Assembly (NCBI GenBank): GCA_963700285.1
Contig: CAVOXA010000007.1
Location: 1-64,000 of the forward strand
Length of the DNA: 64,000 nt
From: an uncultured Chloroflexia bacterium
GTDB taxonomy: Bacteria; Chloroflexota; Anaerolineae; JAAYZQ01
Reading direction: 5' to 3'
Both the position numbers and the translations under genes were made by a program. Shown here one piece after another: positions 4,132 to 34,763 of this stretch (its first letter is position 1; each line of letters opens with the position of its first letter). A model generated the notes under the pieces. The model was not told the DNA's origin, did not search any database, and was given only the letters and a program-made list of their open reading frames with translations.

Positions 4132-4290
4132 ACGGCTGCTGCCTGCTTTGACAAGAGCCGAGCACGCTCGTGCTCGGCTCTTGTTGCGATTGGAAGGTCT
4201 TTGGAAACTCGGGGCGAGCTGCAGAAAGGAGGATGGAAGGCGAGCAGCCTATAATCCCAAGAGGAACACTGTGGGGGACGGAGAAGGAGA

Positions 4291-9897: not shown

Positions 9898-9914
9898 GCA
9901 CGTGTGACAGGACC

Positions 9915-10076: not shown

Positions 10077-10097
10077 GCAGTCTGGAGAGGAGATACG

Positions 10098-13643: not shown

Positions 13644-13757
13644 CCGGTGTGCAGACTGGCAGCCGCACGCAGACTGGGTGCGAGTCTACTATGGCTATGG
13701 CGAGTTGAGGTGGGTCATGGTTGGACAGGTGACAGCGGAGCAGAGGGAGAAGGCGAA

Positions 13758-16943: not shown

Positions 16944-17065
16944 AGGGGGCCGAACCTTGCCGCGAGCTCTGCCCCACGCAATGGGTGTTGAGTCTGGCGG
17001 ATTCACCAGGGTTCTGGGTGCCCTGAGGTCGACTGAGGCAAACAGGGAGGATGGAGAAGCCGTAA

Positions 17066-17094
17066 TTGCTCTTGTAACAAACTTGTGGTATAAT
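17066..17094 (+). promoter_or_regulatory. Putative sigma70 promoter
   Basis: TTGCTC-17 nt-TATAAT with extended -10 TG. Confidence 0.55.
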
Positions 17095-17318
17095 TCGAGA
17101 AGGAAATAGTCCCTGCGTCACCTGTCCGACCAGACGGGCGGGTTGGAAGTCAGCGCAGTATGCGTTGATCAGTTGCGGAAAACAAGGTTGCCACTGATTG
17201 TGGGGGGATGGCATAGACCATGGCCCCAAGGGTGCTTGCTGCTATCTCATCGAGACATCACTGTAGCCCACAGGTCTTTCTTAGGTCGCGAATAAGGCAA
17301 GTCAGGAGGAGGAATCAA

Positions 17319-20300
17319 ATGCAAACGGTGAATAGGACGCTCAAAAGGTACGCCCCACCGCGGAGCCTGTCCAGCTGGGTATTCAAGGCAGCCATGGCCC
17401 TGGTCCTGCTGCTTTCCCTGGTCCTGCTGCTGCCCGGGGTGGGCTACAGCGCCAACCCGGCGCCCAACCAGATCTACTATGTGCCCATGCGGGACAATGA
17501 TCTGCTGACGATGCTGGAGGATATCGACCAGCCGGCGGAGGACGGTGCCTGGCCTGATCCGGCAAGCCCGGTGCGGACCATTGCCTCCATCACCATCGGT
17601 TCCACGGGCACGCTGGTCTACTATGACCAGTGGGAGGACGGCTACGAGGCCAACGCCTCCATGGGCAATCCCACCAGCCTCTACAACAGCACCACCAACC
17701 CCGACGGTACCCAGATCTGGGGCGACGGCATCCTGTCCAACGGCTGTCCCCCGGCCATCGACAATGTGGCCAATCCCTGTGCTACTGCCGCCGATGACCA
17801 GTTCAATGCTGGGGACGTGATCACCCTCGACAACAAAGTACACATGCCCCTCACCGACGGCGCGACCCCCAATGGCCAGTACCTGGACCAATTCTCCACG
17901 AGCGCCTACAACAACAGCGACGGCTCCACATCGTGGACGACCAGCTGGGTGGAAAGCGGCGATACTGGCGGCGCGACCAGTGGCGACATCCAGGTCACCG
18001 GCGGCAAGCTGCGGTTTATGAACGCGGAGGGTGGGGATTACATCAGCCGCGTCGCGTCTGTTCCTGCTACCGCGGATAGGGCAATCCTTCATTTCACGAT
18101 AAATCCACTCTTCTCTTCGCAGAGCGACGTTATGGAAGTATGGGCCACCAGCGGCGCTGGATATACAAGGGTGAAAACCATCGATGCCGATAACCATCCC
18201 CTTGAGGAGCCCTACGCCGTCAACCTCACCGGCTTCAAGGGTACCTCTATGGGGATTAGGTTCCGGCAGGCCAGCAGCCTTGGTTCCAATCAGGGGTGGG
18301 AGATCGACGATGTGGAGATCACGTGGGGTGAGGCCCATACCCGAAGCGCGAGCCGAGTGTACTATGACGGCGGCGACAAGATCGGCGCTACCTTCCCGGT
18401 GGCTCTGACCCGCGTGGGCACTCCCCACGTGCCCGGCTCGGTGATGGCCGGCGCCACCGAGATGGAAGAGATCGACCTGTGGGGCACCTCCTTCGTGGCT
18501 CCGGTGGGCGAGGACACGCCCGACGCCAATACCAGCGCCTTCGAGTACGTGTACCTCTGGATCATGGCCAAGGAGGCCGGCACAACGGTCCAGATCGATA
18601 GCGATGCCAACGGCTCCGTCGACGATACCCAGACCTTGGCCGAGGGCGCTAACTACTACCGGCGCGGCATCCAGGAGGGGGCCACGGTTACGACCAACCA
18701 TCCGGTGCAGGTGCACCTCGTGGCCGCCGACCAGGGTGATACCTTTGAGCAGCGTTGGTACCACCTGGCGCCTCGTGACCAGTGGGACTCGAGCTATTAT
18801 GCCAGCGTGGGCACTGCTCCTGCGAGCTCTGGCTCGGGCTGTACTGAGGTTTGGGCCTACAACCCCAATGGCAGCCAGATCACGATCAGCGTCGACCGAC
18901 CAGGCGCTGCCACTACCACTTTCAACGTGGCCGCTAACGACGCCGATGAATGGCCAGGATCTGCGACCAACTTGGCTGGACGTGGTCTCCATCTATACAC
19001 TACCGGTGGTCAAGATTTCCTGCCCTTTCAGATCATCGACTGCACCAAGGACACGAGTGGTACCGAAGGGCGCCTCTTCGACTGGGGCTATCCCTTGATC
19101 CCGGCGGACCAGCTCACCTCTCAGTATCTGGTCGGCTGGGCGCCTGGCTGCACGGGTGACCCCATCTCGCCGGGGCTCTGCCAGGACCCTGACATCAACG
19201 GCGGCGCCGCCGCAAGCCGCAGCGTGATCTGGGTTACGCCCGTGCAGAACACGACGGTGTATGTCGCCTTTGACGGTGGCGACATCAACTGCCCTGGCGG
19301 TGCAGGTGCGGACTATTCCTTCAGCGCCACGGCGCTGACTTCCTACGGCCTCGTCGACGACCCGGGCGACGTCATCTCGGGCGAGGACGACTATGACATG
19401 ACCGGCGCCCGCATCGTCACCTGCAACGGCGTTGACCTGGCCGTGGCCTATGGCCAGGATCCGCCCCGCTCAGGCGGCAACGACGCTGAGGCCCTGGACC
19501 TGGGTACCGTTGTCCTACCCCTGGCGGGGGACATTACCCTCGAAAAGTCGGTGGACAAGACCCTGGTACCCCGGGGCGGCTCGGTCACCTATACCTACCT
19601 TGTGCGAAGCACCGGCCAGCCGCTGAGCGACGTCTCGGTGACCGACAACAAGTGCTCGCCGGCGGTGCCGACACTGAGCGGTGGCTATAACGTCGGCGAC
19701 ACGGCCAACCTCGGCTTCTTGGACCCCGGCGAGAGCTGGCAGTACACCTGCAGCACCAACATCTACCACCAGACCACCAACGTGGCCTTTGCCAGCGGCA
19801 CACCCGATGGCGGCACAACCTACATCGACAGCCCGCCTGACGAGGAGACGGTCAACGTTACCGACCCGGCCGCCATCGGCGACTATGTCTGGTTCGACGA
19901 GGATGGCGACGGCGACCAGGATGCTGGCGAGGCCGGCATTCCCAACGTCAAGGTGGAGCTGCTGGACAACCAGAACGCCGTAGTGGCCACAACCTGGACC
20001 GACGCCGACGGCGGCTACGTCTTTACCGGACTTGCGCCCGGAACCTATACCGTCCGCATCGACACGACCACGCTGCCCGATCCAGATGGCGCGGGTCCTG
20101 CTGGCCTGCACCCGACCTACGACGAGGATAGCGGAACGACCAACCCCGATCACCAGACCAGCGTGACCGTAGCCGCCGGCGACGAGCACATGACGGCCGA
20201 CTTTGGCTACAACTGGGCGACGCCTGGCGAGACCAACGACCCTGGGAATCAGAATGAACCCAAGGGCGCCATCGGCGACCGGGTCTGGATCGACGCCGAC

Positions 20301-22595
20301 GGCCAGGGCGACCAGGATCCGGGCGAGCCCGGACTGGGCGGCGTTGGCGTGGTGCTGAACTATGACTCGGACGGCGACGGCGTGATCGACAAGGTCTATG
20401 GTACCACGACCACGGATGACGCTGGCATGTATATCTTTGACGAACTGCCGCCAGGTATCTATACAGTCGTCATCGTCGGCGGCGCGACGCTGCCAAGCCC
20501 TGGCGATGCGGCGGTCACTTCCGGCCAGGCGCCATCCGGCTATGGCCAGACCGGCGACCCCGACGACACGGTCGACAACAAGACGACCGATCCGGTCGTA
20601 TTGGGGCCGGGTGATGTTTACCTCAATGCAGACTTTGGCTACCAGCCCTCGGGCAACAGCGGCACCATCGGCGACATCGTCTGGCTGGATGCCGATGCCG
20701 ACGGTGTTGGCCCCAATGGCAATGGTGCCAGCCCAGGGGACGACGATTCCGAGTATGGCATTCCCAATGTGACTGTGGCCCTCATCAAGGACTCCAACGG
20801 CAATGGTCAGTGGGATGCTGGTGAGCCGATTATCGCTACCGACGTCACCGACGAGAACGGCGCCTATTCCTTTACCGGCCTGCCCCTGGACGATGGAGAC
20901 GGCGATGCCGACTACCTGGTCTGGGTCAATGACACCGACAACGTACTTGGCGAGCAGGCCCCGACCTATGACAAAGACGGTACGTCACCGGCTGCCGGGC
21001 AGGAGACCGGGCTGGGGATCAGCGCCACGGCGCTGGCCGACAGCGCCGGAAACCGGCAGCGGTTGGACCAGGACTTTGGCTACGCCCCGCCCGGACACGA
21101 TACGGGCGAGGGTCTCATCGGCGACACGATATTCCTGGACCGGAACGGGGACAACACGCCCAATGCCGGCGAGGGATTGGAGGGTGTGCGGGTCTGGCTC
21201 TACGACTCGACCGGTACCACCCTCCTGCGCACGACTCATACCGACGAGAATGGCAACTACTACTTTGGCGACCTGGAGCCTTCGGGCACCTACCAGGTCT
21301 GGGTCGATACCACGACCCTGCCCAATGGCGGCGCCGGGCTGACCAACACCGTCGATCCCGATACGGCCAGTCCTGGCGATAGCAAATCGACGGTCAACCT
21401 GGGCGCTGATCCCGATGGTATCGACCTGGACCAGGACTTTGGCTACCGTGACACTAGCGACCCGAACACCATCGAGGGTACCCTATGGAATGATCGGGAT
21501 GCCGATGGCCTTCTGGAGGGCGCGGAACCGGGCCGCTTTGCCAACGTCAAGGTGGCGCTCTACGACAGCGGTGGTGACATCGTCGGCTACACCTACACCG
21601 ACAACAATGGCTTCTTCCAGTTCACGGGTCTCCCGGATGGCACCTACACCGTGGACGTGGTCGATGACGGCAACGTGCTGAACGGCTTCTGGCACTCGTT
21701 GGGCACGGCCAATACCGACAACAACAGCCAGGTGGATCCCTACACCACCAGTGTGGGGCCTGGCCAGAGGCTGGTCAACTGGGCCGACTTTGGCTACTAT
21801 GTGGACCCGGGCGCCCTGGGCAACTGGGTCTGGAATGACGTCAACGGCGATGGCATCCAGAATGACGGCGCAAAAGGCATCCCCAACGTCGAGGTCAAGC
21901 TGCAAATCACCTACCCCGGTGGCGCCACCGTCACTGTGACCACCAAAACCGATGCCAGCGGTTACTATAGCTTCCCCAACCTGCTGCTGGATGAGGACTA
22001 TAACGGCGACACCAGCACCGCCCCGGAGCCAAGCTACCAGATAAGTATCAACATTGCTCAGCCAGCTCTGGCGGCCTTCACCTTTCCATCCCCACTATCC
22101 CCACCAGCTTTAGGCAACCAGTTCAACGACTCGAACAACCCTGCTGGTACCAGCGCTCAGCCGACGCAAGGTATGACGGATGTATCCTCCGCAGCGGATG
22201 GTACTGCGCCCGCCTCCTACGACTATGGGTTTGGCGGCGCGCCAACGGGGGTCGAAGGCGTCATCGTCGGGACCTTTACGGCGGCGTGGGAAGGCGATGA
22301 GATCGTGGTCCGGTGGGCCACGGTCAGCGAACTGGATGTCAAGGGCTTTTACGTCTATCGCGCTACGTCTGAAGAGGGCACGCGGACCAAACTCAATGAC
22401 GACTTGGTGCCCAGCGCCATGCCGGGCAGCCCGACGGGTGCGGACTACAAGTATGACGACGAAACGGCGCAGCCTGGGGTCAAGTACTACTACTGGCTGG
22501 AGGGCATAGATCTGCGCGATGGGGCAACGCCCTACGGCCCGGCCGTGGTGGTGCCCTACCGTGGCTATCTGCCGCTGCTCTTCAAGAACCACTAG
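17319..22595 (+). CDS. Large secreted surface protein with DUF11-like and multiple SdrD-B-like repeats
   Basis: ATG 17319 after AGGAGGAGG; signal peptide; repeats IGD.VW.D.DGDG.QD.GE.G; LEKS..VTYTY module; C-terminal shared domain and YLPLLFKNH tail. Confidence 0.85.
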   Translation: MQTVNRTLKRYAPPRSLSSWVFKAAMALVLLLSLVLLLPGVGYSANPAPNQIYYVPMRDNDLLTMLEDIDQPAEDGAWPDPASPVRTIASITIGSTGTLVYYDQWEDGYEANASMGNPTSLYNSTTNPDGTQIWGDGILSNGCPPAIDNVANPCATAADDQFNAGDVITLDNKVHMPLTDGATPNGQYLDQFSTSAYNNSDGSTSWTTSWVESGDTGGATSGDIQVTGGKLRFMNAEGGDYISRVASVPATADRAILHFTINPLFSSQSDVMEVWATSGAGYTRVKTIDADNHPLEEPYAVNLTGFKGTSMGIRFRQASSLGSNQGWEIDDVEITWGEAHTRSASRVYYDGGDKIGATFPVALTRVGTPHVPGSVMAGATEMEEIDLWGTSFVAPVGEDTPDANTSAFEYVYLWIMAKEAGTTVQIDSDANGSVDDTQTLAEGANYYRRGIQEGATVTTNHPVQVHLVAADQGDTFEQRWYHLAPRDQWDSSYYASVGTAPASSGSGCTEVWAYNPNGSQITISVDRPGAATTTFNVAANDADEWPGSATNLAGRGLHLYTTGGQDFLPFQIIDCTKDTSGTEGRLFDWGYPLIPADQLTSQYLVGWAPGCTGDPISPGLCQDPDINGGAAASRSVIWVTPVQNTTVYVAFDGGDINCPGGAGADYSFSATALTSYGLVDDPGDVISGEDDYDMTGARIVTCNGVDLAVAYGQDPPRSGGNDAEALDLGTVVLPLAGDITLEKSVDKTLVPRGGSVTYTYLVRSTGQPLSDVSVTDNKCSPAVPTLSGGYNVGDTANLGFLDPGESWQYTCSTNIYHQTTNVAFASGTPDGGTTYIDSPPDEETVNVTDPAAIGDYVWFDEDGDGDQDAGEAGIPNVKVELLDNQNAVVATTWTDADGGYVFTGLAPGTYTVRIDTTTLPDPDGAGPAGLHPTYDEDSGTTNPDHQTSVTVAAGDEHMTADFGYNWATPGETNDPGNQNEPKGAIGDRVWIDADGQGDQDPGEPGLGGVGVVLNYDSDGDGVIDKVYGTTTTDDAGMYIFDELPPGIYTVVIVGGATLPSPGDAAVTSGQAPSGYGQTGDPDDTVDNKTTDPVVLGPGDVYLNADFGYQPSGNSGTIGDIVWLDADADGVGPNGNGASPGDDDSEYGIPNVTVALIKDSNGNGQWDAGEPIIATDVTDENGAYSFTGLPLDDGDGDADYLVWVNDTDNVLGEQAPTYDKDGTSPAAGQETGLGISATALADSAGNRQRLDQDFGYAPPGHDTGEGLIGDTIFLDRNGDNTPNAGEGLEGVRVWLYDSTGTTLLRTTHTDENGNYYFGDLEPSGTYQVWVDTTTLPNGGAGLTNTVDPDTASPGDSKSTVNLGADPDGIDLDQDFGYRDTSDPNTIEGTLWNDRDADGLLEGAEPGRFANVKVALYDSGGDIVGYTYTDNNGFFQFTGLPDGTYTVDVVDDGNVLNGFWHSLGTANTDNNSQVDPYTTSVGPGQRLVNWADFGYYVDPGALGNWVWNDVNGDGIQNDGAKGIPNVEVKLQITYPGGATVTVTTKTDASGYYSFPNLLLDEDYNGDTSTAPEPSYQISINIAQPALAAFTFPSPLSPPALGNQFNDSNNPAGTSAQPTQGMTDVSSAADGTAPASYDYGFGGAPTGVEGVIVGTFTAAWEGDEIVVRWATVSELDVKGFYVYRATSEEGTRTKLNDDLVPSAMPGSPTGADYKYDDETAQPGVKYYYWLEGIDLRDGATPYGPAVVVPYRGYLPLLFKNH

Positions 22596-22873
22596 CCTTA
22601 GCGGCCAGCGTGCGACCAAGACAGATGCCCACGCCGGAATGTTCTCCCGGCGTGGGCTTTCCCACGCAGCCCATATGGCCTGCAGGAGGCGTCCCAGGTC
22701 TAGGGCGCAGGGCTGATGATGTTCAGGCCCAATTTCCACCTCGGGGGGGATGGACAGGGCGCCAGCTCATGATACACTGGGCTGTGGGTGTCTATTTGTT
22801 TCTACCAAACCTGTCTCGTTCCTACCACCTTCTACCTCAACTTGTCAAGGAAATTGCACCTTGTTGGAGGAGT

Positions 22874-24106
22874 CTAGCGGCGTCGGAAACGCGCACCCAG
22901 TTCGGTGGTCAGTACGCGGAAGGGGTGCCAGAACCGCGCCAGCCGGACAGCGCCGGGGGCAGCCAGGGCATAGCGGTAGCTGAGCCACTCGTCGCCGGGC
23001 AGCAGGATAAAGCGCCCAAAGCGCAGCCATCCGGCCGGCCCGTCGATGAGCGCCAGATGGAGCTGGTAGGGACTGTCCGTACTGTTGGGCACGGGAGGGC
23101 GCGCATGGAACCGCGGACTTGGCCGTACTGTTGGGCGTCGCGGACGGGGCGCGCCCACTGGGGCGCTACCAGGCGGCGGACCCAGCGCCGGCGCAGGGCG
23201 CCAGGTTGTAGATCTGCCAACACCCGGTCGGGGATGGGCGTGCCCAGCAGTTCGCGGCTGAAGGACAGGCCGAAATAGACCGGGACGCGTACCTGGAAGG
23301 CCGAGGCCCTCTCCAGGAGTCGATCCCAGTTGAGGCCGGGATAGGCGGCGACGGTGCGGTCGATGTCGGTCAGGTTTAACAAATGGGCATAGCCATGGCC
23401 AAAGCCCCAGTGCAGGCAGAGGTGCAGCAGGCCGTCCTCGGGGCACAATTGCCAGGGTGGTCCCGGCCGTCGCTCAAGCGGAGCGGCAAGGCGGCCTGCC
23501 ACAGGGCCTCCATGTCGATGCGCGTGGCGTGGTGCAGCCACTTGTGGGTCGTCAGATGCCAGTGCAGGTCCAGCATCAGGTTGCCCACCGGCGAGGTCGC
23601 GGTGGAGGTTGATCTCGCCGCTGTAGCGCGCCTCGTAGGCAAAAGAGTGGCCGGGTGGTCCAGGCTGGGCCTGGTAGCCCAAGGGGCGCCAGGGCCTCGG
23701 GAACCTGTGGAACCTGGTCGCGGGGCACCAGGATGTCGAGATCGACCATGGGCCGGGGGGCGATGCCTTCATAGACTGTGCTGGCCAGGGCTGCGCCTTT
23801 GAGCGCCAGTGTGGGAATACCAGCCTCGGCCAGGCGGCCCAGGACGCGATCCAGCTCCTGGAACTGGAGGGTATTGAGCCTGGCGGCGCCATAGTAGGCC
23901 TGCCGGAGTTGCTCCTGGATCTCGGGTGGAGCGGCCAGGTTCTTCTGTTGGAGGGCGGCGTACAACTGGGGTGCGACGCCATCCCGTTGTGCCAGCTCGA
24001 CGATGCTGGTCCAGGATCCGGGTCCGGGTAGGGCAGGGGCCTCGGGCCGCTGGCCAGCGGCCAGCAGATGGCATAGGGAAGCCCAGGTGGTGCTTTGCTC
24101 AACCAT
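22874..24106 (-). pseudogene. Uncharacterised nucleotidyltransferase family protein (PF14907-like), about 4 frameshifts as given
   Basis: LALKGAALA..VY...PRPMVDLDILV, LDLHW and PEDGLLHLCLH motifs spread over three reading frames (shifts near 23685, 23585, 23460, 23090). Confidence 0.8.
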
Positions 24107-24153
24107 GGGGGGATTATAACCGGCTTGGACGAAAGGAGCAAGTCCAACCGCGT

Positions 24154-24251
24154 AGATCTGACAGGTTTGTCCTCCATGCGCAGGACTGGGAAGATCCACA
24201 GTCTGGCCCAGGACCCGTACCTGCTGGACACGAGGAAAACCTGTCAGGTCT
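24154..24251. repeat. REP/MITE-like element: 15-bp inverted arms around a 68-nt spacer
   Basis: AGATCTGACAGGTTT ... AAACCTGTCAGGTCT; nearly the same arms at 39052-39150. Confidence 0.75.
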
Positions 24252-24294
24252 GGATCCAAAAGGGATGGACTGGGGATGGTGGCCGTACTGCGAT

Positions 24295-24322
24295 TTGCGC
24301 AGATGTGGGTTTGTGGTATAAT
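24295..24322 (+). promoter_or_regulatory. Putative sigma70 promoter of the PqqD-rSAM operon
   Basis: TTGCGC-16 nt-TATAAT with extended -10 TG, 48 nt upstream of the PqqD ATG. Confidence 0.55.
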
Positions 24323-24370
24323 AACCAAGCGTGGGGGAGAACACATCCCACTATTGGAGTTCAATCGAGA

Positions 24371-24667
24371 ATGGTCGATTCTTTAGCAGTTCAACTCGAA
24401 AAAGACCCGTCGGTCGTCCACCGGGAGATAGCCGGTGAGTCGATCCTGGTCCCTATTCGCAGCCGGTCGGCCGACCTGGAGAGCATCTTTACCCTGAACG
24501 CATTGGGATCGCGTATCTGGGAGCTGATGGATGGCGACCGCTCGCTGGCCGAGATCAAGGAGCTACTGGCCGCAGAGTATGACGTGTCGCCGCAAGAGTT
24601 GGAATTGGACCTGCTCGAGTTCGTCGACCAACTGGTCGAGGCTGGCGTAGTCAGAGAGGTTGTCTAG
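24371..24667 (+). CDS. PqqD family protein (stand-alone RiPP recognition element)
   Basis: 98 aa from ATG 24371; REIAGESILVP..IFTLN..G..IWELMDG.RSL.EI...L..EYDV is a typical PqqD/RRE pattern. Confidence 0.88.
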   Translation: MVDSLAVQLEKDPSVVHREIAGESILVPIRSRSADLESIFTLNALGSRIWELMDGDRSLAEIKELLAAEYDVSPQELELDLLEFVDQLVEAGVVREVV

Positions 24668-25782
24668 GTGGACTGTCCGCACGTGCCTGATCTCCCGTTT
24701 GGCGAACTTGCCGGTAGGATCCGCAAGCAAGCCTACGAGAATAGGATCCCGCTCAGCGGCACGCTGGAGCTTACCTACCGCTGCAACAACAACTGTGTGC
24801 ACTGCTACTGCAACCTCCCGGCGGGCGACCGCAGCGCGAGGTCCAGGGAGCTGAGCGGCTCGCAGGTGAAGGCCATCCTGGACGAAATTTCCGAAGCCGG
24901 GTGCCTGTACCTGAGCATTACGGGCGGTGAGCCGCTCCTCCATCGCGACTTTGCAGAGATCTGGGTCCATGCCAAGGAAAAGGGTCTTCTTGTCTCTCTG
25001 ATGACCAATGGCACCGCGATCACGGAGGACGTGGCTGGCCTTCTGGCTGACTATTACCCGCTCGCCGTGGCCATAACGGTGTATGGCATAACGCGGGAGA
25101 CCTACGAACGCGTGAGCCGGGCGCCGGGTTCCTACGACAAGTGTATGGACGGCATCGACAGGCTCATGGCGCGGGGGATCAAGCCCAACTTGAGGACGAT
25201 TCCCATGGCCGCTAGCAGCGGCGACGTGGGGGGCGTGAGGGCCTTTGCCAAGGAGCGCGGGCTCAAGTTTCAGTTCGACCCACTGCTCACGCCGCGCAAG
25301 GACGGCGGAGCGTACGACTTTACGCAGAGGCTGTCGCCTCGAGAGATCGTCGAGCTCGACCTGCTGGATGAGGAGCGAGTCGAAAGTTTTCGAGATCTGG
25401 CGTATGACCGGCCTGCTGCGCCGGTCAATGGGGATCTGTTTCATTGTGGCGCGGGCGCCATCTCATTCAGTATCAACCCCTACGGGGAATTGGGCATGTG
25501 TCTCATGTCATCCCCTGCCTTCCCAGGATACGATCTGCTGTCGGGCTCGTTTGCGGAAGGTTGGTTCGATCATATCCCCGTCTGAGAGATCGAAAGATTA
25601 CTCGCAGCTTCGCGTGTGTGACCTGTGACAAGCGAGTCATCTGCGGCTGGTGTCCGGTGTGGTCGGATTTGGAGAACGGCAATCCGGAGAGCCCGGTAGA
25701 GTACCTGTGCCAGGTGGCGGACCACCGGGCGGTCGTTCTCGGCTTGGGCCAGCAGGGGCAGCATTCTGGCGAGCTGTCGTGA
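24668..25782 (+). CDS. Radical SAM/SPASM peptide maturase (one frameshift near 25580)
   Basis: ELTYRCNNNCVHC (CxxxCxxC), ITGGEP, CGAG..SINPYG...C; the SPASM end CVTC...ICGWCP...LC continues in another frame after a C4 run. Confidence 0.88.
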
Positions 25783-25808
25783 CCAAGTTCTGACATAGGA
25801 GGACATGT

Positions 25809-25970
25809 ATGGAGAAGGCCGAACGCAAAGCGTACGAGAAGCCAAGGATCGAACGTGTGGAGCTGAGGGTCGAAGAGGCCGTACTCGGTGTTTGCAAGAC
25901 CGCTACCGGGGGCGCCGCGAACCCTCCCGACTGCGTTATCGGAGTCTGCCTCGAAGAGATCGGTAGCTAG
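25809..25970 (+). CDS. Putative RiPP precursor peptide, 53 aa (not in ORF track)
   Basis: AGGAGG at 25797-25802, ATG 25809, TAG 25968-25970; MEKAERKAYEKPRIERVELRVEEAVLGVCKTATGGAANPPDCVIGVCLEEIGS; YxxP leader motif and a 3-Cys C-terminal region. Confidence 0.85.
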   Translation: MEKAERKAYEKPRIERVELRVEEAVLGVCKTATGGAANPPDCVIGVCLEEIGS

Positions 25971-25985
25971 TGCTGCCTGGTCGAA

Positions 25986-26871
25986 TTGGACAGCATTAGC
26001 GTCTTCTCGGTTGGCGGCTTTGCTTTTGCTCTGCAAGGGCAAGTTTCCGTCGAAATTCAGGATCTGTACCTGCCCTTCATGGAATCAGGTTTGGCACCTG
26101 ATGTTGCCGTCAGGTTGCGCCTCCGTGATGCGGTGGTTCGTGGTGCCCGTAGTGAGTTATCGCCTATCTTCGATACCGGGGATGCCTGGTCTCTACACCG
26201 TGAGGGCGATCACTACCTACTCAGTGTGCCATCGGCTGGCAACGGGAGGGCGACCTACTGCGAGGCTCTGATTTCTGATGATCTGAAAGATGTTGATCTA
26301 TATCTGGCGCGGGAGCTGCTGACCGGCAGCGTGGCCGGTCGTCCCGCCTTGCGCCTGGAAGTCCCTGATGTACCCGCTGGCCGAGTTGCTGCTCATCTGG
26401 ATCCTGGCGCGGCGGGATGGCATCCTGGCCCACGCGGCCGGCGTCGTCGATGGCGCGAAGGGCTATCTGTTCGTTGGGAACAGCGGCCACGGCAAGACGA
26501 CGATGGCCCGCCTGTGGGCCGAGGGTGCAACGATTCTCAACGACGATCGCATTGTCGTCAGGCCTCGCGACGGGCGCTTCTGGATGTATGGCACTCCCTG
26601 GCACGGCGACTACCAGCGGGTATCACCCGGCGCATTCCCCATCAGCAAGGTCTTTTTCCTCTCCCAATCGACCTCCAACCAGGCCCAGCCCAGATCCACC
26701 TCGGAAGCGGCCACACTGCTCCTGACGCGCTCCTTTCTTCCGCTCTGGGATCGGACGGCCATGGCCAGCCTCCTGTCCTCCTGCGCTGAGATTGCCTCGG
26801 CGGTGCCCTGCTACGACCTGGGTTTCCTGCCCGAACCCGGCATTGTCGACTATGTGAGGGGCCTGGCCTAG
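25986..26871 (+). CDS. HPr-kinase-related P-loop protein (ScmC-like), one frameshift near 26360
   Basis: HAAGV....G.LF.GNSGHGKTT (Walker A), LNDDR and YGTPWHG motifs in 26368-26871; the N-terminal half is in the frame of 25986. Confidence 0.75.
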
Positions 26872-26884
26872 TGTTCAGAGTCCG

Positions 26885-27376
26885 ATGATACACTGTTCCG
26901 CACAGGACCTGGCGCAGCTTGGCGACCTGGTCCTGAAGCAGGGCGCCGAGTTGCGGTTCCGCGCCGCAGGCACGAGCATGCAACCCGTGATCCAGGATGG
27001 CCAAACCATCAGGGTCGCGCCCGCGCCGGCGGGCGGAACCCGGTTGGGCGACATCCTCTTTTACCGCAGTGGCGCGGACCGGGCCGTGGTCCATCGTTTG
27101 CTCAAGCGCGTCCAGACGGCGGGAGGGGTGCTGTTGTTGACCAAGGGCGATGCCTGCGCCAGCGCCGATCCGTTGGTGCCGCCGGAGCGGGTGTTGGGCC
27201 GGGTTGTCGCTATCGAGGCCATGGATGGGCGGCTGCTTCGATTGGATCGGGGGCTGAACCTCTTGCGGGCCAGGCTTTACGCCTGGCTGTGGCTGGCCTC
27301 CCCCTATCTGCGCCGGGCGCTGGGCAAACGGCCCACCTTTGGCGCTCTTTTGCGCCAACTGCTGCTGCCCAGGTAA
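26885..27376 (+). CDS. S24/S26 family serine peptidase
   Basis: GTSMQP (catalytic Ser), VVHRL, TKGD and VLGRV motifs. Confidence 0.85.
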   Translation: MIHCSAQDLAQLGDLVLKQGAELRFRAAGTSMQPVIQDGQTIRVAPAPAGGTRLGDILFYRSGADRAVVHRLLKRVQTAGGVLLLTKGDACASADPLVPPERVLGRVVAIEAMDGRLLRLDRGLNLLRARLYAWLWLASPYLRRALGKRPTFGALLRQLLLPR

Positions 27377-27390
27377 TCGCGACGCTGCGG

Positions 27391-27419
27391 GCGAGGCTCG
27401 GAAGCCTCGCTCTTTTGTT
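27391..27419 (+). terminator. Rho-independent terminator closing the RiPP-like operon
   Basis: GCGAGGCT-CGGA-AGCCTCGC followed by TCTTTTGTT. Confidence 0.7.
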
Positions 27420-27499
27420 GCGGATTCCGCAGGCTGCTCGCGCCAGGTCACAGTGGGGCGTACCTAGCCGCAGAGCAGATGGGCCGAAACAGGCTCGAG

Positions 27500-28092
27500 A
27501 CTGTGCGAAAGCGCTTGTGCTGGGCCCGATCCCCGCACTTCGGGGACACAGTCCAGCCCAAGCGCGCAGATTGGCGGACTGTGGTCCGCCTAGAGCAAGT
27601 GAGTGAGTTTTCGCACAGTCTGGCTTGTGCTGGACCCGATCCTCGCACTTTGGGGACACAGTCCAGCCCAAGCGCGCACGGATCGGCGGACTGTGGTCCG
27701 CCTAGAGCTAGTGAGTGAGTTTTCGCACAGTCTGGCTTGTGCTGGACCCGATCCCCGCACTTCGGGGACACAGTCCAGCCCAAGCGCGCACGGATCGGCG
27801 GACTGTGGTCCGCCTAGAGCTAGTGAGTGAGTTTTCGCACAGTCTGGCTTGTGCTGGACCCGATCCCCGCACTTCGGGGACACAGTCCAGCCCAAGCGCG
27901 CACGGATCGGCGGACTGTGGTCCGCCTAGAGCTAGTGAGTGAGTTTTCGCACAGTCTGGCTTGTGCTGGACCCGATCCCCGCACTTCGGGGACACAGTCC
28001 AGCCCAAGCGCGCACGGATCGGCGGACAGTGGTCCGCCTAGAGCTAGTGAGTGAGTTTTCGCACAGTCTGGCTTGTGCTGGACTGTGGTCCA
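27500..28092. repeat. Tandem array of about 5 copies of a 112-bp palindrome-rich unit
   Basis: GTGAGTTTTCGCACAGTCTGG recurs at 27603, 27715, 27827, 27939 and 28051; each unit has CCCCG/CGGGG, GCTGGAC/GTCCAGC and GGCGGAC/GTCCGCC stems. Confidence 0.92.
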
Positions 28093-28158
28093 CGCAGAGC
28101 AGATGCTGATCCTTGTTGCAGGACATTCTGTTGGAAAGAGGTAGGTAGACCATTGGGT

Positions 28159-31100
28159 ATGGCACTCAAGATCCGTTGGCTTGGTAGAGTCTTCTTTGTG
28201 TTGGTAGCTGTTGCGATGATCTGGCCCGCGTCGCCGGGCCATGCTGTTGCTTCTGAGAGAGCAATTGTAGACAATGCGGTCAGGCTGCTGTCCGCGACGG
28301 AGGTTGGAGCCACGTTCGAGGTCAGGGTACCCCGAGACCGGCTGCAGGTTGAGGCCGTATCGTCAGGTGGCCAGGAGATGTCCAAGGTGTCGATCCCTGG
28401 CTGGAGCACGACCGGGCGGGCTGGAGCGCCTGCTCTGCCCATGGTGGTGGCCACGCTGGGCGTACCGCACGGCGCTGAGGTTACGCTGAGCGTTGGCCCG
28501 GGCGCGCCCGCCTTGTTGGCCCTGCCCGCTCCCGTGGCGGCGGTGCCGGCGCTCAGTCCTGAGTGGAGTGAACCTGCGCCTGGGGTCCTGTCTCAAGGGC
28601 TGCCAACACTTGGGTTCGAAAACCAGCCCGATCCCGAGATATATGGTTCGGACCAGGCTTATCCCGGTCCCCTGGCCGCGATCGTGAGCGACCGCACAGT
28701 GAATGGCCAGCGCGTGATTGGCGTAGCGGCTTATCCGGTCCAGTACCAGCCAGACTCGGTGTTGCTCGTGGTTTATGAGGATCTGGAGATCCAGATCGCC
28801 TTCGAGGGCGGGACTGGCGGAGACGCAGAGGGATTTGCTGCCCAGCCAGGGTCCGCGGACGATGCGGGCCGCCTGGGGCGTGGAGTGTTGAACGAACTGG
28901 CAGCGGAGGCCTGGGTCCAGGGGACCGCAGCGCCCGCCGGGACGCTTGCCGCCCCATGGCTGCCGCCTGACCCGGGCTACCGGGTGTCGGTCGAGCATGC
29001 CGGCATCTACAAGCTGACCTATGGCGACCTGTCCGGTGCCGGCGTACTCGACACCAACCCCGATCCGCGGACCTTCCGGCTCTACAACAAGGGCCAGGAG
29101 GTAGCCATCCATGTGGAAGGTGAAGGCGACGGGCAGTTTGGCGTGGACGACTATGTGCTTTTTTATGGGGAAGCTGCTGACTCGAAATATACGCCCTACA
29201 ACGTCTACTGGCTGACCTATGCGCCAACCGTGGCCGGTGACGAGCGGCGGATGCCGGACCGCGATGGAACGCCGGATCCCGCTGGAGGAACCTCGCCTGT
29301 TGGCCACAATGATGTCCTTCACCGCGAAGAGAACCACTACTATGTCACCATTCTGGATGGCGACCAGGACCTGGAACGCTTTGTGTGGAGCTATGTCTAT
29401 GCACCCTCCATACCCCAATGGTCGCACTCCTTTTCGCTGGCCGGTCCCGCGACCGGGACGGCCATGCTCACGGTGGCTATGTTTGGTGGGAATATCCGTG
29501 ACAGTTATGCCGACCCGCATCACACCGTCGTGACCCTGAACGGGGTTGAACTCGAGAACGTGGTGTGGGATGGGATCGAGTGGTACGTGATGAGCGAGCC
29601 GCTTGATCAATCTATCCTGAAAACCAGCCCGGAGGTCAATACTCTCGTGGTCTCCAGTCCCAATGACCAGGGCGAAAGCTATGATCTGGTCTACATCGAC
29701 TGGGCGACGCTCGAGTTTGTGAACAGCTTTACCGCGGTGGACGATCAGCTTCGTTTCCACTATGACACCCCGGGCATTTGGACCTATGCCATCGAAGGTT
29801 TCACGACGGACGATGCGATTGTTTTTGACATAACGGATCCAAGTTCGGTGGCGCGCATTACGGGTGGTGGCCAGATCGCCGCCAATCCGGCCGCATATTC
29901 CTTCGTCGACGAGGTGGCGGCGGGCGCGGCGACCGACTATATCGTTCTGACGCCGGCCGCCTTCAGGTCGCCGGCGGGTATCGAGCTGGATACACCGTCT
30001 GACTTGGGCGCGGTGACGGGTGCGGACTGGGTCGTCGTGACGCACTCGCTATTTTCGGGGGCGGCGGCCCGGCTGACAGCCCACCGGGCAGCCCAGGGTT
30101 TGGTGGCTTTCCAGGTGGACGTCCAGGACGTCTACGATCAGTTTGGTTACGGCATAGAGGGCGCCTACCCCATCCACGATTTTCTGGAATACACCTTTTA
30201 CAACTGGCAGCCGAGGCCAGTCTACGTGGTCCTCTTTGGCGATGGATCGGCCGATCCCAAGGACCATGAGAAGCGCGGTAGCGTCAGCTTCATCCCGCCC
30301 TACCTCGCGCCGGTGGATCCCTGGATCGTGGAGACGGCGGCCGACAACCGTTACGTGGCCTTTACAGATACGGGAACCTACCCGCTCCCGGACATGATGC
30401 TGGGGCGCCTGGCGGTGGACACGGAGCACCAGGCCAACGTCGTCGTGAACAAGATCATCGACTATGAGCTGGCGCCAGAACCTGGGGACTGGAAAGAGAG
30501 CGTGCTCTTTGTTGCAGACAACGACGATCCGGGGATCGCGTTCACAGATTACTCGGACGACATTATCAACTGCTGCCTTCCGGCCTCCTACCAGTACGAG
30601 AGGGTCTACTACCTGGATACGCACCCGACTTCAGGTGGAGCCAAGGCGGACATCCTAGCCAACATCACCAGCGGACAGTTCATCGTCAATTATGTCGGCC
30701 ATTCCTCGGTGACGACCTGGGCTGGCGAGTCGCTTTTCGGCGTCGGAGACCTCGGGTCCCTGGGCAACGGGGGAAAACTGCCCGTCATGCTGCCCATGAC
30801 CTGCTATGACGGGTACTACCACGGCCTGTATTCGTCCTCCCTGGCAGAGTCCATCGTCCGTATCGAGGGAAAAGGCGCCGTGGCAAGCTGGTCGGGAACA
30901 GGCCTGGGCGTGGCGCAGGGACACGACGAGCTGAACCGGGGCTTTTTTGACGCGCTGTTCAAAGACGGCAAGCGCACCATCGGCGAGGCAACGATGGCGG
31001 GCCTACAGCGGCTGGCGGACGGCGGCACCCACCTGGACCTCCTGGATACCTACCTCCTGTTTGGGGACCCAGCGCTCCAGCTCACGCAGGCGCCCACCTC

Positions 31101-31431
31101 GGTGGAACTGGCCTCTTTTGAGGCGATCGCGAAGGGGGGCCAAGCGGTGATGCTGCGCTGGCGGACGGCCAGCGAAGCTGGCGTACTGGGCTTCGATCTG
31201 TTCCGGCAGGACGCGCGGGGTACCGTCCAGCTTAATGATGGCCTCATTCCCAGCAGGGCGCCTGGCACGGCGATGGGAGCAGCCTATGAATGGCTGGATG
31301 GCCCCCTGCCCGCTGGTGAGCATCTGTACTGGCTGGAGATCATCGATCAGACCGGAGGCCGGACGCGGCATGGGCCGGCTGAGGCAGTTTTGGCTGAGTA
31401 TCGCCTCCTTCTGCCTTTCGTGAGTCGATAG
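28159..31431 (+). CDS. Secreted C25 (gingipain/PorU-like) cysteine peptidase 1
   Basis: Likely ATG 28159 plus signal peptide; propeptide-like N-terminus; DVQDVYDQFG, MLGRL, NYVGH (His), MTC (Cys), YLLFGDP; C-terminal shared domain and LLLPFVSR tail. Confidence 0.88.
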   Translation: MALKIRWLGRVFFVLVAVAMIWPASPGHAVASERAIVDNAVRLLSATEVGATFEVRVPRDRLQVEAVSSGGQEMSKVSIPGWSTTGRAGAPALPMVVATLGVPHGAEVTLSVGPGAPALLALPAPVAAVPALSPEWSEPAPGVLSQGLPTLGFENQPDPEIYGSDQAYPGPLAAIVSDRTVNGQRVIGVAAYPVQYQPDSVLLVVYEDLEIQIAFEGGTGGDAEGFAAQPGSADDAGRLGRGVLNELAAEAWVQGTAAPAGTLAAPWLPPDPGYRVSVEHAGIYKLTYGDLSGAGVLDTNPDPRTFRLYNKGQEVAIHVEGEGDGQFGVDDYVLFYGEAADSKYTPYNVYWLTYAPTVAGDERRMPDRDGTPDPAGGTSPVGHNDVLHREENHYYVTILDGDQDLERFVWSYVYAPSIPQWSHSFSLAGPATGTAMLTVAMFGGNIRDSYADPHHTVVTLNGVELENVVWDGIEWYVMSEPLDQSILKTSPEVNTLVVSSPNDQGESYDLVYIDWATLEFVNSFTAVDDQLRFHYDTPGIWTYAIEGFTTDDAIVFDITDPSSVARITGGGQIAANPAAYSFVDEVAAGAATDYIVLTPAAFRSPAGIELDTPSDLGAVTGADWVVVTHSLFSGAAARLTAHRAAQGLVAFQVDVQDVYDQFGYGIEGAYPIHDFLEYTFYNWQPRPVYVVLFGDGSADPKDHEKRGSVSFIPPYLAPVDPWIVETAADNRYVAFTDTGTYPLPDMMLGRLAVDTEHQANVVVNKIIDYELAPEPGDWKESVLFVADNDDPGIAFTDYSDDIINCCLPASYQYERVYYLDTHPTSGGAKADILANITSGQFIVNYVGHSSVTTWAGESLFGVGDLGSLGNGGKLPVMLPMTCYDGYYHGLYSSSLAESIVRIEGKGAVASWSGTGLGVAQGHDELNRGFFDALFKDGKRTIGEATMAGLQRLADGGTHLDLLDTYLLFGDPALQLTQAPTSVELASFEAIAKGGQAVMLRWRTASEAGVLGFDLFRQDARGTVQLNDGLIPSRAPGTAMGAAYEWLDGPLPAGEHLYWLEIIDQTGGRTRHGPAEAVLAEYRLLLPFVSR

Positions 31432-31529
31432 GAGCTCGCAGTAGGTTGCTGTTCGGCCGTACTTGCCAGGCGCTGCGGATGATGTGCAGGTCAAGGTGTG
31501 TTCAAGACATCAGGAGATAGGGGGTAGCT

Positions 31530-34484
31530 ATGGAAAAGCGTGGAAGGTTCAGAATGGCGGGCTGGTGCCTGATCATCGTCCTGATCGTGGTGTCCCTCCC
31601 TTCAGCGGCGGGGGCGGGCAGCTTGGCCCAGCCGGGCCGGGCAGGCGCCGTCGATCTGCTTTCTTCCAGTGAGTCTGGGCTGAGTTGGTTGCTGCAGGTT
31701 CCCACGGATCGCCTGGCAGTGGAGCCGGTCGCCGTGGATGGGGAGACGTTCGCGGCCATCTCGCTGGCAGGCTGGGGCGCGACCCAGCAGGCCGGAGCGC
31801 CGGAGCTGCCGAGGCTGGTGACGGCCATCGGCGCGCCGCCCGGTGCGGAGGTGCGCGTCCAAGCCTTACCAGGCGCGGCAACTTCAAGGACGCTGCCTGG
31901 CCGGGTGCTGCCCGTGCCCACGCTGGAAGCGCGCTGGGACGGCGAGGCACTGGTCGCAGGAAGCCCGTTCCTCCCCTCACTGAAGAGCGAGCGGGTGGCC
32001 GATCCGGCGGTCTATGGGGCTGGCGGATCCTACCCCGGAACCCTGGCCGAGGTGGTGAGCGACGGCTGGGTGCGCGGACAACGGGTCGTTGGCATCGCGC
32101 TCTATCCGGTTCAGTACGAGCCTGCCACGGGTGGGCTGACGGTCTATGAGAACCTGGAGGTGCAGGTGCGCTTCGAGGGGGCTGCTGCGGCAGGACGCCC
32201 CGGCGGGGCCCAGGGCCCCGCGCACGAGGCGCTGTTCGAGAGCGAGTTGCTGAACTATGAGGCAGCGCGGAACTGGGCCAGCGCCACAGAGGCGGCGGGT
32301 CCCGAAGCCGTGCCCTGGATGCCGCCGGACCCAGGCTTCCGGGTGTACGTGGAAGAAGAAGGGATTTACAGGCTGTCCTATGGCGAGCTGCAGGCGGCCG
32401 GTGTGCTGGCCGGCAACCCCGATCCGGGGACATTCCGCATGTACAACATGGGCCAGGAGGTGGCCATCCACGTCGAGCTGGGCGGTGACGGGAACTTTGG
32501 CGCGGGGGACTATATACTCTTTTACGGGCAAGCTATCGCGTCCAAGTACAGCCGCTACAACGTGTACTGGCTGACCCACGGTCAGGGTACAACCAAGCCG
32601 ATGGGCAGCCGCGATGGGTCGCCATCGGGAGGGACGGCGCCCGCGACTTTTGATGACCTGCTCCATCTGGAGCAAAACCAGTACTATGTCACGAGTCTGG
32701 TGGGTGATGAAAACCTGGAACGGTTCGTGTGGGACTATTTGTATCCGCCGGAGCGGAACAGTTGGGCGACCAGCCTTTCGCTGACGGCCCCGGCCCATGG
32801 GTCAGAGAAGGCAACGCTCAAGATCCTGGTTCATGGCGGCGATCTGCCGGACAACGCCTCCGATCCTCACCGCGTGCAGGTCTATCTCAACGGTGGTGAG
32901 GTGAAGGACGAATCGTGGAACGGCATCGGCCAGCACGAGATCATCATTGGCAATCTGAGCCAGACCCTGCTCAACGCGGGCAGCAACAACGTGGAGCTAC
33001 GAGCTCCCAGGGCCGAGGACCTGGTGTACGTGGACTGGCTGGACCTAGCCTTTGCCAACACTTTTGTGGCTGGTGCCGACTCGCTGGCCTTCAACCAGGC
33101 CAATCCTGGCAAGTGGCAGTTCGGCATCGACGCCTTTAGCCAGTCCGGCGTGGCGGTCTTTGACGTAACCGACCCGGCCTCGGTGGCACGCATCCTTAAC
33201 GGCAGCGTGACTCCCTCGGGCCCGAGTTTCTCCCTTGCCTTCACGGATCAGATCGCCGCTCCCACCCGCTATCTGGCTCTGGCCAGCACCGCGTTCCTGC
33301 CGGCGGCCAAGATCGAGCGCGACACAGCCTCCAATCTGCAGTCGGCAGCCAATGGCGCGGACTATGTCCTGGTAACGCACCGGGATTTCGCCGCCGCGGT
33401 GGCGCCTCTGGCGGCCTACCGGGCCGGGCAGGGGCTGCGGGTCGTGCAGGTGGATGTGCAGGACGCCTACGACGAGTTCGGCTATGGCCTGCCTAGCGCG
33501 CAGGCCCTGCGCGCGTTCCTGACCTATGCCTACGACAGATGGGTCGATCCTGCCCCCGAGTACGTGCTGCTGGTGGGCGACGGGCATTACGATCCAAAGG
33601 ACTATGGGGGCCATGGGCTGGCGAGCTATATCCCGCCCTACCTGGCGCCTGTGGATCCCTATATCAACGAGACGGCGGCGGACAACCGCTATGTGTCCTT
33701 CACCGCCGGGGACGAAATCCCGGATATGATGCTGGGTCGGATGGCGGTGAATTCGGCCGCGGAGGCCACCGTCGTCGTTAACAAGACCCTGGACTATGAG
33801 AAGGCGCCCGCGCCCGGAAGCTGGAACAACCGCGTGCTCTTTGTGGCTGACGATCCTGAGGCGGGCGCCAACTACCCCAAGATGTCGGACGATCTGATCG
33901 CTTGCTGCCTGCCGGGCAGTTATGGGTCGCCGAAAGTCTACTATACGGTGACCCATCCCACACCCGCTGGGGCCAGGGCCGCCATCCTTTCGGCCATCAG
34001 CGCCGGACAGTTGATCGTACACTATAACGGCCACGCGCTGACGTTCCGGTGGGCGGACGAGTCGCTGTTCAGGTCGAGTGACATCCCGTCCCTGGCCAAC
34101 GGAAACCGCCTGCCCATCATGCTGCCGATGACGCGCTACGATGGCTACTTCCACCAGCCGGTCCCCTCCTCCCAGGGCTCCATGGGCGAAGGCATCGTTC
34201 GCGCTGACGGGAAGGGGGCCGTGGCCAGTTGGTCGCCGGCGGGCGTCAACCTGTCGACAGGGCAGGCGGAGCTCGACAGCGGCTTCTTTGATACGGTCTT
34301 CAAGGCCGGCAGTAGAGTCGCAGGTCAGGCCGCTACGGCCGGCAAGGTGCGTCTGTGGGCGACCGGCAAGAACCAGGACCTGGTGGACACCTTCATATTC
34401 TTGGGCGATCCAGCGCTGGCGATCCATCCGCTCTGGGATGGGGCGTCTATCTTTCTTCCGGTGATCCAGAGGACTGCTCACTAG
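31530..34484 (+). CDS. Secreted C25 peptidase homologue 2 (catalytic Cys replaced by Arg)
   Basis: Signal peptide; HYNGH retained but MTRYDG where the paralogues have MTCY(D/E)G; FLGDP; IFLPVIQR tail. Confidence 0.86.
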   Translation: MEKRGRFRMAGWCLIIVLIVVSLPSAAGAGSLAQPGRAGAVDLLSSSESGLSWLLQVPTDRLAVEPVAVDGETFAAISLAGWGATQQAGAPELPRLVTAIGAPPGAEVRVQALPGAATSRTLPGRVLPVPTLEARWDGEALVAGSPFLPSLKSERVADPAVYGAGGSYPGTLAEVVSDGWVRGQRVVGIALYPVQYEPATGGLTVYENLEVQVRFEGAAAAGRPGGAQGPAHEALFESELLNYEAARNWASATEAAGPEAVPWMPPDPGFRVYVEEEGIYRLSYGELQAAGVLAGNPDPGTFRMYNMGQEVAIHVELGGDGNFGAGDYILFYGQAIASKYSRYNVYWLTHGQGTTKPMGSRDGSPSGGTAPATFDDLLHLEQNQYYVTSLVGDENLERFVWDYLYPPERNSWATSLSLTAPAHGSEKATLKILVHGGDLPDNASDPHRVQVYLNGGEVKDESWNGIGQHEIIIGNLSQTLLNAGSNNVELRAPRAEDLVYVDWLDLAFANTFVAGADSLAFNQANPGKWQFGIDAFSQSGVAVFDVTDPASVARILNGSVTPSGPSFSLAFTDQIAAPTRYLALASTAFLPAAKIERDTASNLQSAANGADYVLVTHRDFAAAVAPLAAYRAGQGLRVVQVDVQDAYDEFGYGLPSAQALRAFLTYAYDRWVDPAPEYVLLVGDGHYDPKDYGGHGLASYIPPYLAPVDPYINETAADNRYVSFTAGDEIPDMMLGRMAVNSAAEATVVVNKTLDYEKAPAPGSWNNRVLFVADDPEAGANYPKMSDDLIACCLPGSYGSPKVYYTVTHPTPAGARAAILSAISAGQLIVHYNGHALTFRWADESLFRSSDIPSLANGNRLPIMLPMTRYDGYFHQPVPSSQGSMGEGIVRADGKGAVASWSPAGVNLSTGQAELDSGFFDTVFKAGSRVAGQAATAGKVRLWATGKNQDLVDTFIFLGDPALAIHPLWDGASIFLPVIQRTAH

Positions 34485-34696
34485 ATCTGCCAGTGCCATG
34501 TCGCGGCTGTGCTGAGACCAGTCCCCCAGTTCGCAATGGGTGGGCTGGTCTCTGTTCATCGGTCGCAAGATCCCGAGGTTGCCGTTCCAGGCACATCAAG
34601 CACGCCCTGCCGGTCCGCTACGGCGACGTGCCTCCGGATCATCTGCTGTAATGCAGCTAACGGAGAAAAACCGAAATTCAGGTTGTAATGGGATGG

Positions 34697-34705
34697 TGGT
34701 ATAAT
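34697..34705 (+). promoter_or_regulatory. Extended -10 promoter element
   Basis: TGGTATAAT about 60 nt upstream of C25 gene 3. Confidence 0.45.
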
Positions 34706-34763
34706 CATTGAGGAACTCCGTATTCGGGCAAGCTCGGGGCAAGTCGTGATGGGAGATAGGCAC

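Follow-up and report, generated by a model that had tools for sequence, protein, structure and literature searches.

A conserved three-cysteine peptide gene as the likely precursor gene of a radical SAM and HPr-kinase-like maturation cassette in Chloroflexota

We analysed a 64,000-nucleotide stretch of DNA from an uncultured Chloroflexia bacterium of the Anaerolineae (contig CAVOXA010000007.1, positions 1 to 64,000), here called the window, which carries a small gene for a candidate precursor of a peptide made by ribosomes and modified after translation (RiPP). The gene (25809–25970, forward strand) runs from an ATG at 25809 to a TAG at 25968–25970 and encodes a peptide of 53 amino acids, MEKAERKAYEKPRIERVELRVEEAVLGVCKTATGGAANPPDCVIGVCLEEIGS. 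A Shine-Dalgarno motif read from the sequence (AGGAGG, 25797–25802, forward strand) precedes the ATG with a 6-nucleotide spacer, and the open reading frame (ORF) starts 27 nucleotides 3′ of the TGA (25780–25782) that closes the 3′ piece of a radical SAM (rSAM) gene. Residues 9–12 of the peptide read YEKP, cysteines stand at positions 29, 42 and 47 (C-x12-C-x4-C), and the C-terminal residue is serine; the ribosome-binding site, start codon, YEKP motif, three-cysteine pattern and terminal serine that an initial annotation had described are all in place. The leader spans approximately residues 1–27 (YEKP ... EEAVLG) and the core approximately residues 28–53 (xCKT ... C ... C ... GS). The genome holds a single copy of the gene, and neither this peptide nor its relatives match any Pfam or NCBIfam model.

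Short ORFs are plentiful in this GC-rich DNA, with 140 ORFs of at least 30 amino acids overlapping the 14 kb from 19000 to 33000, and two others overlap the peptide ORF itself: a second 53-residue ORF in a different frame (25805–25966, forward strand) and a 179-residue antisense ORF (25503–26042, reverse strand). The length of the peptide ORF is thus unremarkable on its own, and it could be a chance ORF or a shadow of one of the two overlapping frames; what lifts it beyond chance is its conservation, which is seen in the 25809 frame only. A six-frame search of 61 genomes (G000 and 60 relatives) recovered a same-genus orthologue at the same position (E 5e-15), together with small ORFs matching the leader in several genomes of the same family. 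Comparison with the same-genus orthologue gave a ratio of nonsynonymous to synonymous differences (pN/pS) of 0.24, with synonymous sites saturated at a pS of 0.83. Moreover, the strong ribosome-binding site is at the right distance for the start at 25809, and the antisense ORF has no Pfam match. The chance or wrong-frame explanation is effectively refuted, and we assign it next to no probability: the peptide ORF is a real conserved gene under purifying selection, fixed between the rSAM gene and a kinase-like gene.

A single-sequence search of 5.8 billion proteins returned only two close homologues (79% and 67% identity), and the family becomes visible only through six-frame genome searches and a profile. 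In a sample of 401 genomes from the phylum, 22 genomes gave a match at E ≤ 0.01, and 17 of these held a credible small ORF on inspection; the matches in the other five were long unrelated ORFs and were set aside. A profile built from 10 peptides and run on 1.84 billion representative proteins matched 1145 cluster representatives at E ≤ 1e-3, and the best 150 of these are nearly all 45–90 amino acids long. Residue counts were taken from the best 152 of the 1145 matches. The anchor [YWF]xxP...L..C occurs in 151 of these 152 representatives, and 139 of the 151 anchor-bearing peptides contain exactly three cysteines from the anchor onward. Within the same 152, the cysteines are spaced C-x12-14-C-x4-6-C and followed by 5–6 residues, lysine stands directly after the first cysteine in 121, and the last residue is serine in 111 and threonine in 10, with a GS ending in 73. 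Threonine or serine is found two residues past the first cysteine in 99 of the 151 anchor-bearing peptides. An alignment of 121 sequences has Y9, P12, L26, C29, C42 and C47 as invariant positions and KKxYxKPxxxxVxLxPEEAVLGxCKT as the family consensus. Serine termination recurs in 35 of 39 peptides from an independent set of loci anchored on the rSAM gene. The sources of these relatives name them "hypothetical protein". The initial annotation had proposed looking for a conserved small ORF at orthologous PqqD-rSAM loci, and the profile and six-frame searches do find such a family, with leader and cysteine spacing kept.

A second type of leader, WxKPELxVLxR..PEEAVL..CK, is found with multi-rSAM loci; peptides of this type are accompanied by more rSAM genes (2.1 vs 1.4) and contain more cysteines (4.1 vs 2.8). 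One genome of the phylum, G074, has eight peptide matches, each on its own short contig (loci L012, L032 and L034–L039). Seven of the eight are nearly identical precursors with CPTIGT or CPTLGT at the C-terminus; they could form a family present in several copies or belong to a repeat region that is fragmented. An archaeal multi-rSAM version of the system occurs in Methanoregula (locus L112, approximately 2900–4430). It has four precursor-like ORFs in tandem, which are distantly related and have WxTPEIVVL leaders; beside them lie a PqqD gene, three rSAM genes and a gene for an S24-GNAT fusion.

The peptide gene of the window stands among genes for candidate maturation enzymes. On the reverse strand, a PF14907 (NTP_transf_5) nucleotidyltransferase gene (22877–24364) is split over two reading frames (Pfam NTP_transf_5, 100.5 bits on the ORF 23576–24364 and 43.8 bits on the ORF 22909–24231). 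It is followed on the forward strand by a gene for a 98-residue discrete RiPP recognition element (RRE) of the PqqD type (24371–24667; Pfam PqqD, 64.3 bits, E 1.3e-17), which is 95% identical to its same-genus orthologue. Lasso-type RREs such as TbiB1 bind YxxP leaders, and the PqqD profile matched TbiB1 (5v1u) with an E of 5.7e-12 over the whole domain; it also matched two recent entries named PqqD-family chaperones. The rSAM/SPASM gene comes next (24668–25782, forward strand; Pfam Radical_SAM, 83.8 bits), with a frame break at approximately 25573–25579: CNNNCVHCY and the first SPASM cysteines are encoded in the ORF 24668–25585, and CxxCx5CxxC and the final cysteine in the ORF 25444–25782. 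An alignment of the rSAM family contains CxxxCxxC and seven SPASM cysteines, with C39, C43, C46, C270, C288, C325, C328, C334, C337 and C356 conserved, and the last five of these lie in the shifted frame of the window. The solved structures nearest to the enzyme by profile are the thioether-forming SkfB (E 2e-28), then PqqE and CteB.

Directly 3′ of the peptide gene lies a gene for a P-loop kinase-like protein of the HPr-kinase/PEPCK fold (25986–26871, forward strand), which the NCBIfam models ScmC (38 bits) and HprK_rel_B (37.7 bits) match with scores under their cut-offs. Its intact same-genus orthologue has 294 amino acids, and the predicted model of that protein (predicted local distance difference test, pLDDT, 89.4) has PEP carboxykinases (PEPCK) and HPr kinase/phosphorylase (HPrK/P) as its top Foldseek matches. 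A profile of the kinase-like family against the PDB matched HPrK/P (E 5e-5) as the only longer stretch, the rest being mostly P-loop matches to ABC transporters. The next gene (26885–27376, forward strand) encodes a soluble archaeal-type signal-peptidase-I-like (S24/S26) peptidase, a candidate leader peptidase of the cassette (NCBIfam sigpep_I_arch, 44.6 bits vs a cut-off of 51.85; Pfam Peptidase_S24, 17.9 bits vs 23.3). A terminator-like hairpin followed by a T run (27389–27412, forward strand) stands after the peptidase gene and is the likely operon end, although two terminator-like sites were observed in the region vs 2.8 expected and the hairpin is therefore weak on its own. A scan for sigma-70-like promoters over 24000–28200 returned no site and is uninformative for this phylum.

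The same arrangement recurs well beyond this genome. Across Anaerolineae and other phyla, we observed a fixed order of PqqD-type RRE, rSAM/SPASM enzyme, peptide, HPr-kinase-like kinase and signal-peptidase-I-like peptidase, often accompanied by a PF14907 nucleotidyltransferase and by giant PorU-like C25 peptidases. Searching with nothing but the peptide led to 19 loci in the phylum, at which rSAM and PqqD genes adjoin the peptide, and an unannotated protein of approximately 300 amino acids with a weak match to HprK-related models lies directly 3′ of it. Pfam counts at these loci relied on a greedy choice of the longest ORF, which sometimes masks real genes in GC-rich DNA, so that the PqqD and rSAM counts are lower bounds. 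At least 8 of the 19 contain Peptidase_S24, and in 15 a Peptidase_C25 gene lies no farther than 5 kb from the peptide.

A complementary search anchored on the rSAM alignment, with one genome per species, returned 74 loci, whose titles name Anaerolineae/Anaerolineales, Omnitrophota, Deltaproteobacteria/Desulfobacterales, Nitrospirota, Nitrospinae and Acidobacteriota, as well as Verrucomicrobiota, Aminicenantes, Actinomycetota, Clostridia, Planctomycetota and Methanoregula. Hidden Markov models built for the analysis place PqqD, rSAM and kinase-like genes together in 49 of these 74 loci. Among the 49 cassette loci, 32 have a peptide match (E ≤ 1e-4), 40 a peptidase, 16 a C25 gene, 18 a nucleotidyltransferase and 18 more than one ORF matching the rSAM enzyme; a relaxed search recovered further, more distant peptides at loci that had no match at first. 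In several phyla the end of a C25 ORF meets the start of the PqqD ORF on the same strand, which suggests that the C25 gene and the cassette form one operon.

Enzymes of these types have been described in two settings. The linear polyphosphorylated peptides (LPP; LppA/B/K/S/N/D) of Bacillota are, according to the accessible text of Popov et al. (Nat Commun 2026, PMC13381572), phosphorylated by an HprK-like kinase, LppK, which adds one to four phosphates to core Ser3 and refuses threonine, and are freed of their leader by the SpI-like LppS, a Ser-His-Asp enzyme that cuts only if the RRE presents the leader. In the lasso peptide paeninodin, a homologue of HPr kinase phosphorylates the hydroxyl of the C-terminal serine of the precursor, and in pseudomycoidin a nucleotidyltransferase adds hexoses to that phosphate (both as given in the accessible text of PMC8498205).

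Taken with the gene order, these precedents make it likely, in our judgement, that the peptide ORF is the precursor gene of a conserved five-gene maturation cassette, whose product would be bound, cross-linked, phosphorylated and trimmed by the proteins encoded next to it. Each step is drawn from gene context and homology. Binding of the YEKP leader would be the task of the discrete PqqD-type RRE, which would also present the peptide. In the core, the SPASM rSAM enzyme would introduce cross-links by way of the three invariant cysteines, most likely as thioethers. The HPr-kinase-like enzyme would then phosphorylate a serine, for which the terminal serine is the best candidate, as in paeninodin, with the conserved threonine or serine two residues after the first cysteine as an alternative acceptor. 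The PF14907 nucleotidyltransferase may decorate the phosphate. Leader removal would fall to the signal-peptidase-I-like enzyme, the counterpart of LppS in LPP, which would cut near the conserved EEAVLG block at a site whose exact position is not derivable from the LPP motif. The proposal of the initial annotation that the peptide is the substrate of the adjacent enzymes is supported by this context, given that the PqqD protein is nearest to TbiB1, the rSAM enzyme has CxxxCxxC and a full SPASM set, and the arrangement is shared by relatives and other phyla.

Several observations weigh against this reading. We found no exporter or ABC transporter domain among the ORFs of at least 150 amino acids in the window, a survey that smaller or broken genes could escape. 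In its favour, contigs from RNA libraries span 25696–25880 and 25908–26112, over the peptide region; they are a weak hint that the operon is transcribed and do not prove it. LppK acts on core Ser3 rather than on a C-terminal residue and does not accept threonine, which makes the phosphate acceptor uncertain here. The rSAM enzyme also falls below every curated NCBIfam cut-off, the best match being the mycofactocin maturase with 107.6 bits vs 265, so its family does not fix its chemistry.

This last point bears on a different account, in which the peptide is a true precursor and the rSAM/SPASM enzyme makes something other than cysteine thioethers (a C-C or C-O cross-link, an epimerisation or a C-terminal modification), leaving the cysteines for disulfides or metal binding. 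The best full-length NCBIfam match of the orthologues (103–116 bits), as of the window enzyme, is the mycofactocin maturase, whose site of action is a C-terminal residue. The sactipeptide and ranthipeptide maturase models all score far short of their cut-offs (StsB 69.5 vs 625, AlbA 56 vs 850, SkfB 51.2 vs 300 and, from the orthologues, PapB 52–64 vs 340 bits). Cysteine number and rSAM gene number show no significant correlation (rho 0.20, p 0.22); across loci that are non-independent, this comparison does not serve as evidence. Furthermore, the accessible text of PMC10288494 holds that predicting rSAM chemistry calls for very high identity to an enzyme already known. Set against these points, the three cysteines are invariant with their spacing kept, the nearest solved enzyme forms thioethers, and three is an odd number for disulfides; we consider non-thioether chemistry unlikely, while giving it some weight.

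The other points that count against the proposed maturation pathway concern the state of the genes themselves. Comparison with intact orthologues by tblastn places frame changes in the rSAM gene (25573–25579, at a CCCC run, 25576–25579), in the kinase-like gene (approximately 26344–26375) and inside the nucleotidyltransferase gene, so that all three are frameshifted in the window, with the flanking ORFs of 1791, 1126 and 984 amino acids intact. The cassette could accordingly be decaying in this genome: the rSAM gene, and perhaps others, would be pseudogenes, and the peptide ORF, though intact, would be a leftover whose product no longer undergoes maturation. To this may be added the same-genus orthologue of the rSAM gene, whose CxxxCxxC region is out of frame. 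In that genome (G001, locus L040, 6858–7943) the rSAM gene forms one frame of 362 amino acids, in which residues approximately 17–55, which should hold CxxxCxxC, are encoded in an alternative frame; such an alternative-frame stretch within a continuous frame suggests two compensating indels, through assembly error or decay.

We compared the region with short-read contigs from eight public runs. One contig is identical to the window over 26232–26383 (152 nucleotides) save for one base missing at 26359, and two others lack one base at 26362, which narrows the break in the kinase-like gene to near 26359–26362. Deleting either base in silico yields a single kinase-like frame of 294 amino acids, the length of the same-genus orthologue, and our reading is that the break reflects either an error of assembly or a difference between strains. 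In the nucleotidyltransferase gene, single bases at 23453, 23459, 23599 and 23687 are missing from contigs, which casts doubt on its frames in the window. We tried to obtain a clean frame by removing those four bases, and no single frame of the expected length resulted. The rSAM break is covered by no contig of the eight runs, a gap that favours neither reading; it does fall at a CCCC run, and a genome 89% complete in 22 contigs would fit an indel-prone assembly. With the peptide itself under purifying selection, we regard decay of the cassette as highly improbable.

The initial annotation could name no RiPP class for the peptide, and that judgement stands, as no Pfam or NCBIfam model covers it and we found no published description of it in open-access papers or bioRxiv. 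The peptide and cassette combine features of rSAM RiPPs with those of LPP and lasso peptide phosphorylation and are not categorically new, the nearest characterised systems being LPP and the phosphorylated lasso peptides, both of which are without an rSAM enzyme. The core set of LPP (RRE, HprK-like kinase, SpI-like peptidase and NTP transferase) is present here in full, where the kinase-like and peptidase matches are below curated cut-offs and are backed by fold (for the kinase) and conservation. The terms "radical SAM", "rSAM" and "SPASM" are absent from PMC13381572, whereas an rSAM/SPASM gene adjoins the peptide system at each of the 49 cassette loci, a set that had this gene as its search anchor, and also in the relatives found through the peptide alone. 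The LPP leader (YxxPxVLxHQxIxFETxxS) has only YxxP in common with the peptide family. LPP precursors are given in the accessible text as 35–200 amino acids long, with highly variable C-terminal core parts and phosphorylation at Ser3, in contrast to the three invariant cysteines and terminal serine observed here. LPP loci include an MsbA-like exporter that has no counterpart among the larger ORFs of the window, and the same text describes LPP as restricted to Bacillota, whereas the present cassette occurs in Anaerolineae and other phyla.

Phosphorylated lasso peptides share with our system a YxxP/WxxP leader and a discrete RRE, and the terminal serine found here fits lasso kinase chemistry. However, the window yielded neither an asparagine-synthetase-like lasso cyclase nor a B2 cysteine protease; it has an rSAM/SPASM enzyme and a cysteine-based core instead. 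Sactipeptides and ranthipeptides (SkfB, AlbA, CteB, PapB) have in common with our system an rSAM enzyme with CxxxCxxC and full SPASM, RRE-guided recognition, which is predicted here, and a cysteine-containing core. They differ in that the RRE is a separate protein here and in that they have no kinase, SpI-like peptidase or nucleotidyltransferase and no C25 neighbours, besides the fact that no curated maturase model is reached. The SynChlorMet system (ScmC/D/E/F; TIGR04249, TIGR04248, TIGR04250 and TIGR04251) likewise joins an HPrK-like protein, a PqqD homologue and an rSAM/SPASM enzyme; its models are among our best matches yet remain far below cut-off (ScmC 38 vs 125, ScmD 26.5 vs 100 and ScmF 73.8 vs 400), and none of the related loci tested reaches the Scm cut-offs. 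To our knowledge, the description of SynChlorMet identifies no precursor. In open-access papers and bioRxiv we found no description of a peptide cassette that pairs an rSAM enzyme with an HprK-like kinase, or of its product; the supplements of PMC10288494, with nearly 15,000 rSAM RiPP proteins, may include the rSAM family.

The cassette of the window sits within an island of approximately 34 kb of giant secreted proteins (4807–22595 and 28051–38771). On one side lie three paralogous M28-peptidase/cadherin-like/Big_9 proteins (4807–16940) and the 1791-residue SdrD_B protein (17220–22595); on the other lie three paralogous giant secreted C25 (gingipain/PorU-like) peptidases, the first at 28051–31431 on the forward strand (NCBIfam type IX secretion system sortase PorU, 261.7 bits), the second at 31530–34484 and the third at 34746–38771 (Pfam Peptidase_C25). 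The PorU model scored 261.7 and 245.7 bits on C25 proteins, below its cut-off of 420. The 1791-residue and 1126-residue proteins share a similar C-terminal domain of approximately 90 amino acids, which may serve for sorting.

The interval from the cassette to the first C25 gene contains a tandem array at 27513–28083, in which a 112-bp unit is repeated 5.1 times (97% matches) and which overlaps the annotated GTG start of the C25 gene. This unit is one of a family of dispersed repeats: 29 matches to it are spread over several contigs of the genome, and some of these also form short arrays. An rve-family integrase/transposase gene is found farther along the window, at 58061–59626. At two loci from one family of the phylum (L047 and L054, genomes G279 and G182), genes flanking the cassette and C25 gene encode a sortase, a LuxR-type response regulator together with a GAF histidine kinase, and an extracytoplasmic function (ECF) sigma/anti-sigma pair; the window has a GAF-PAS histidine kinase at 686–3409.

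The recurrent adjacency to PorU-like C25 peptidases hints at a cell-surface role rather than an antibiotic one. In its most specific form, which we put forward tentatively and think decidedly unlikely, the matured peptide, stapled by thioethers and bearing a phosphate or sugar on its terminal serine, would be a dedicated partner of these peptidases in phyla without type IX secretion, either as an acceptor or adaptor for C25-mediated attachment of giant surface proteins through the near-invariant lysine next to the first cysteine, or as a protease regulator. If true, this would amount to a new RiPP-based system for the sorting or control of surface proteins.

As the likely precursor of its cassette, the peptide described here supplies a substrate for a very large family of gene clusters that spans many phyla, including some methanogens. 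Its YxxP leader, spaced cysteines and terminal serine, considered together with its neighbours, lead to a testable prediction of a stapled peptide phosphorylated on its terminal serine. Such a product would join two separate fields, the cross-linked RiPPs made by rSAM enzymes and the phosphorylation toolkit of lasso peptides and LPP.

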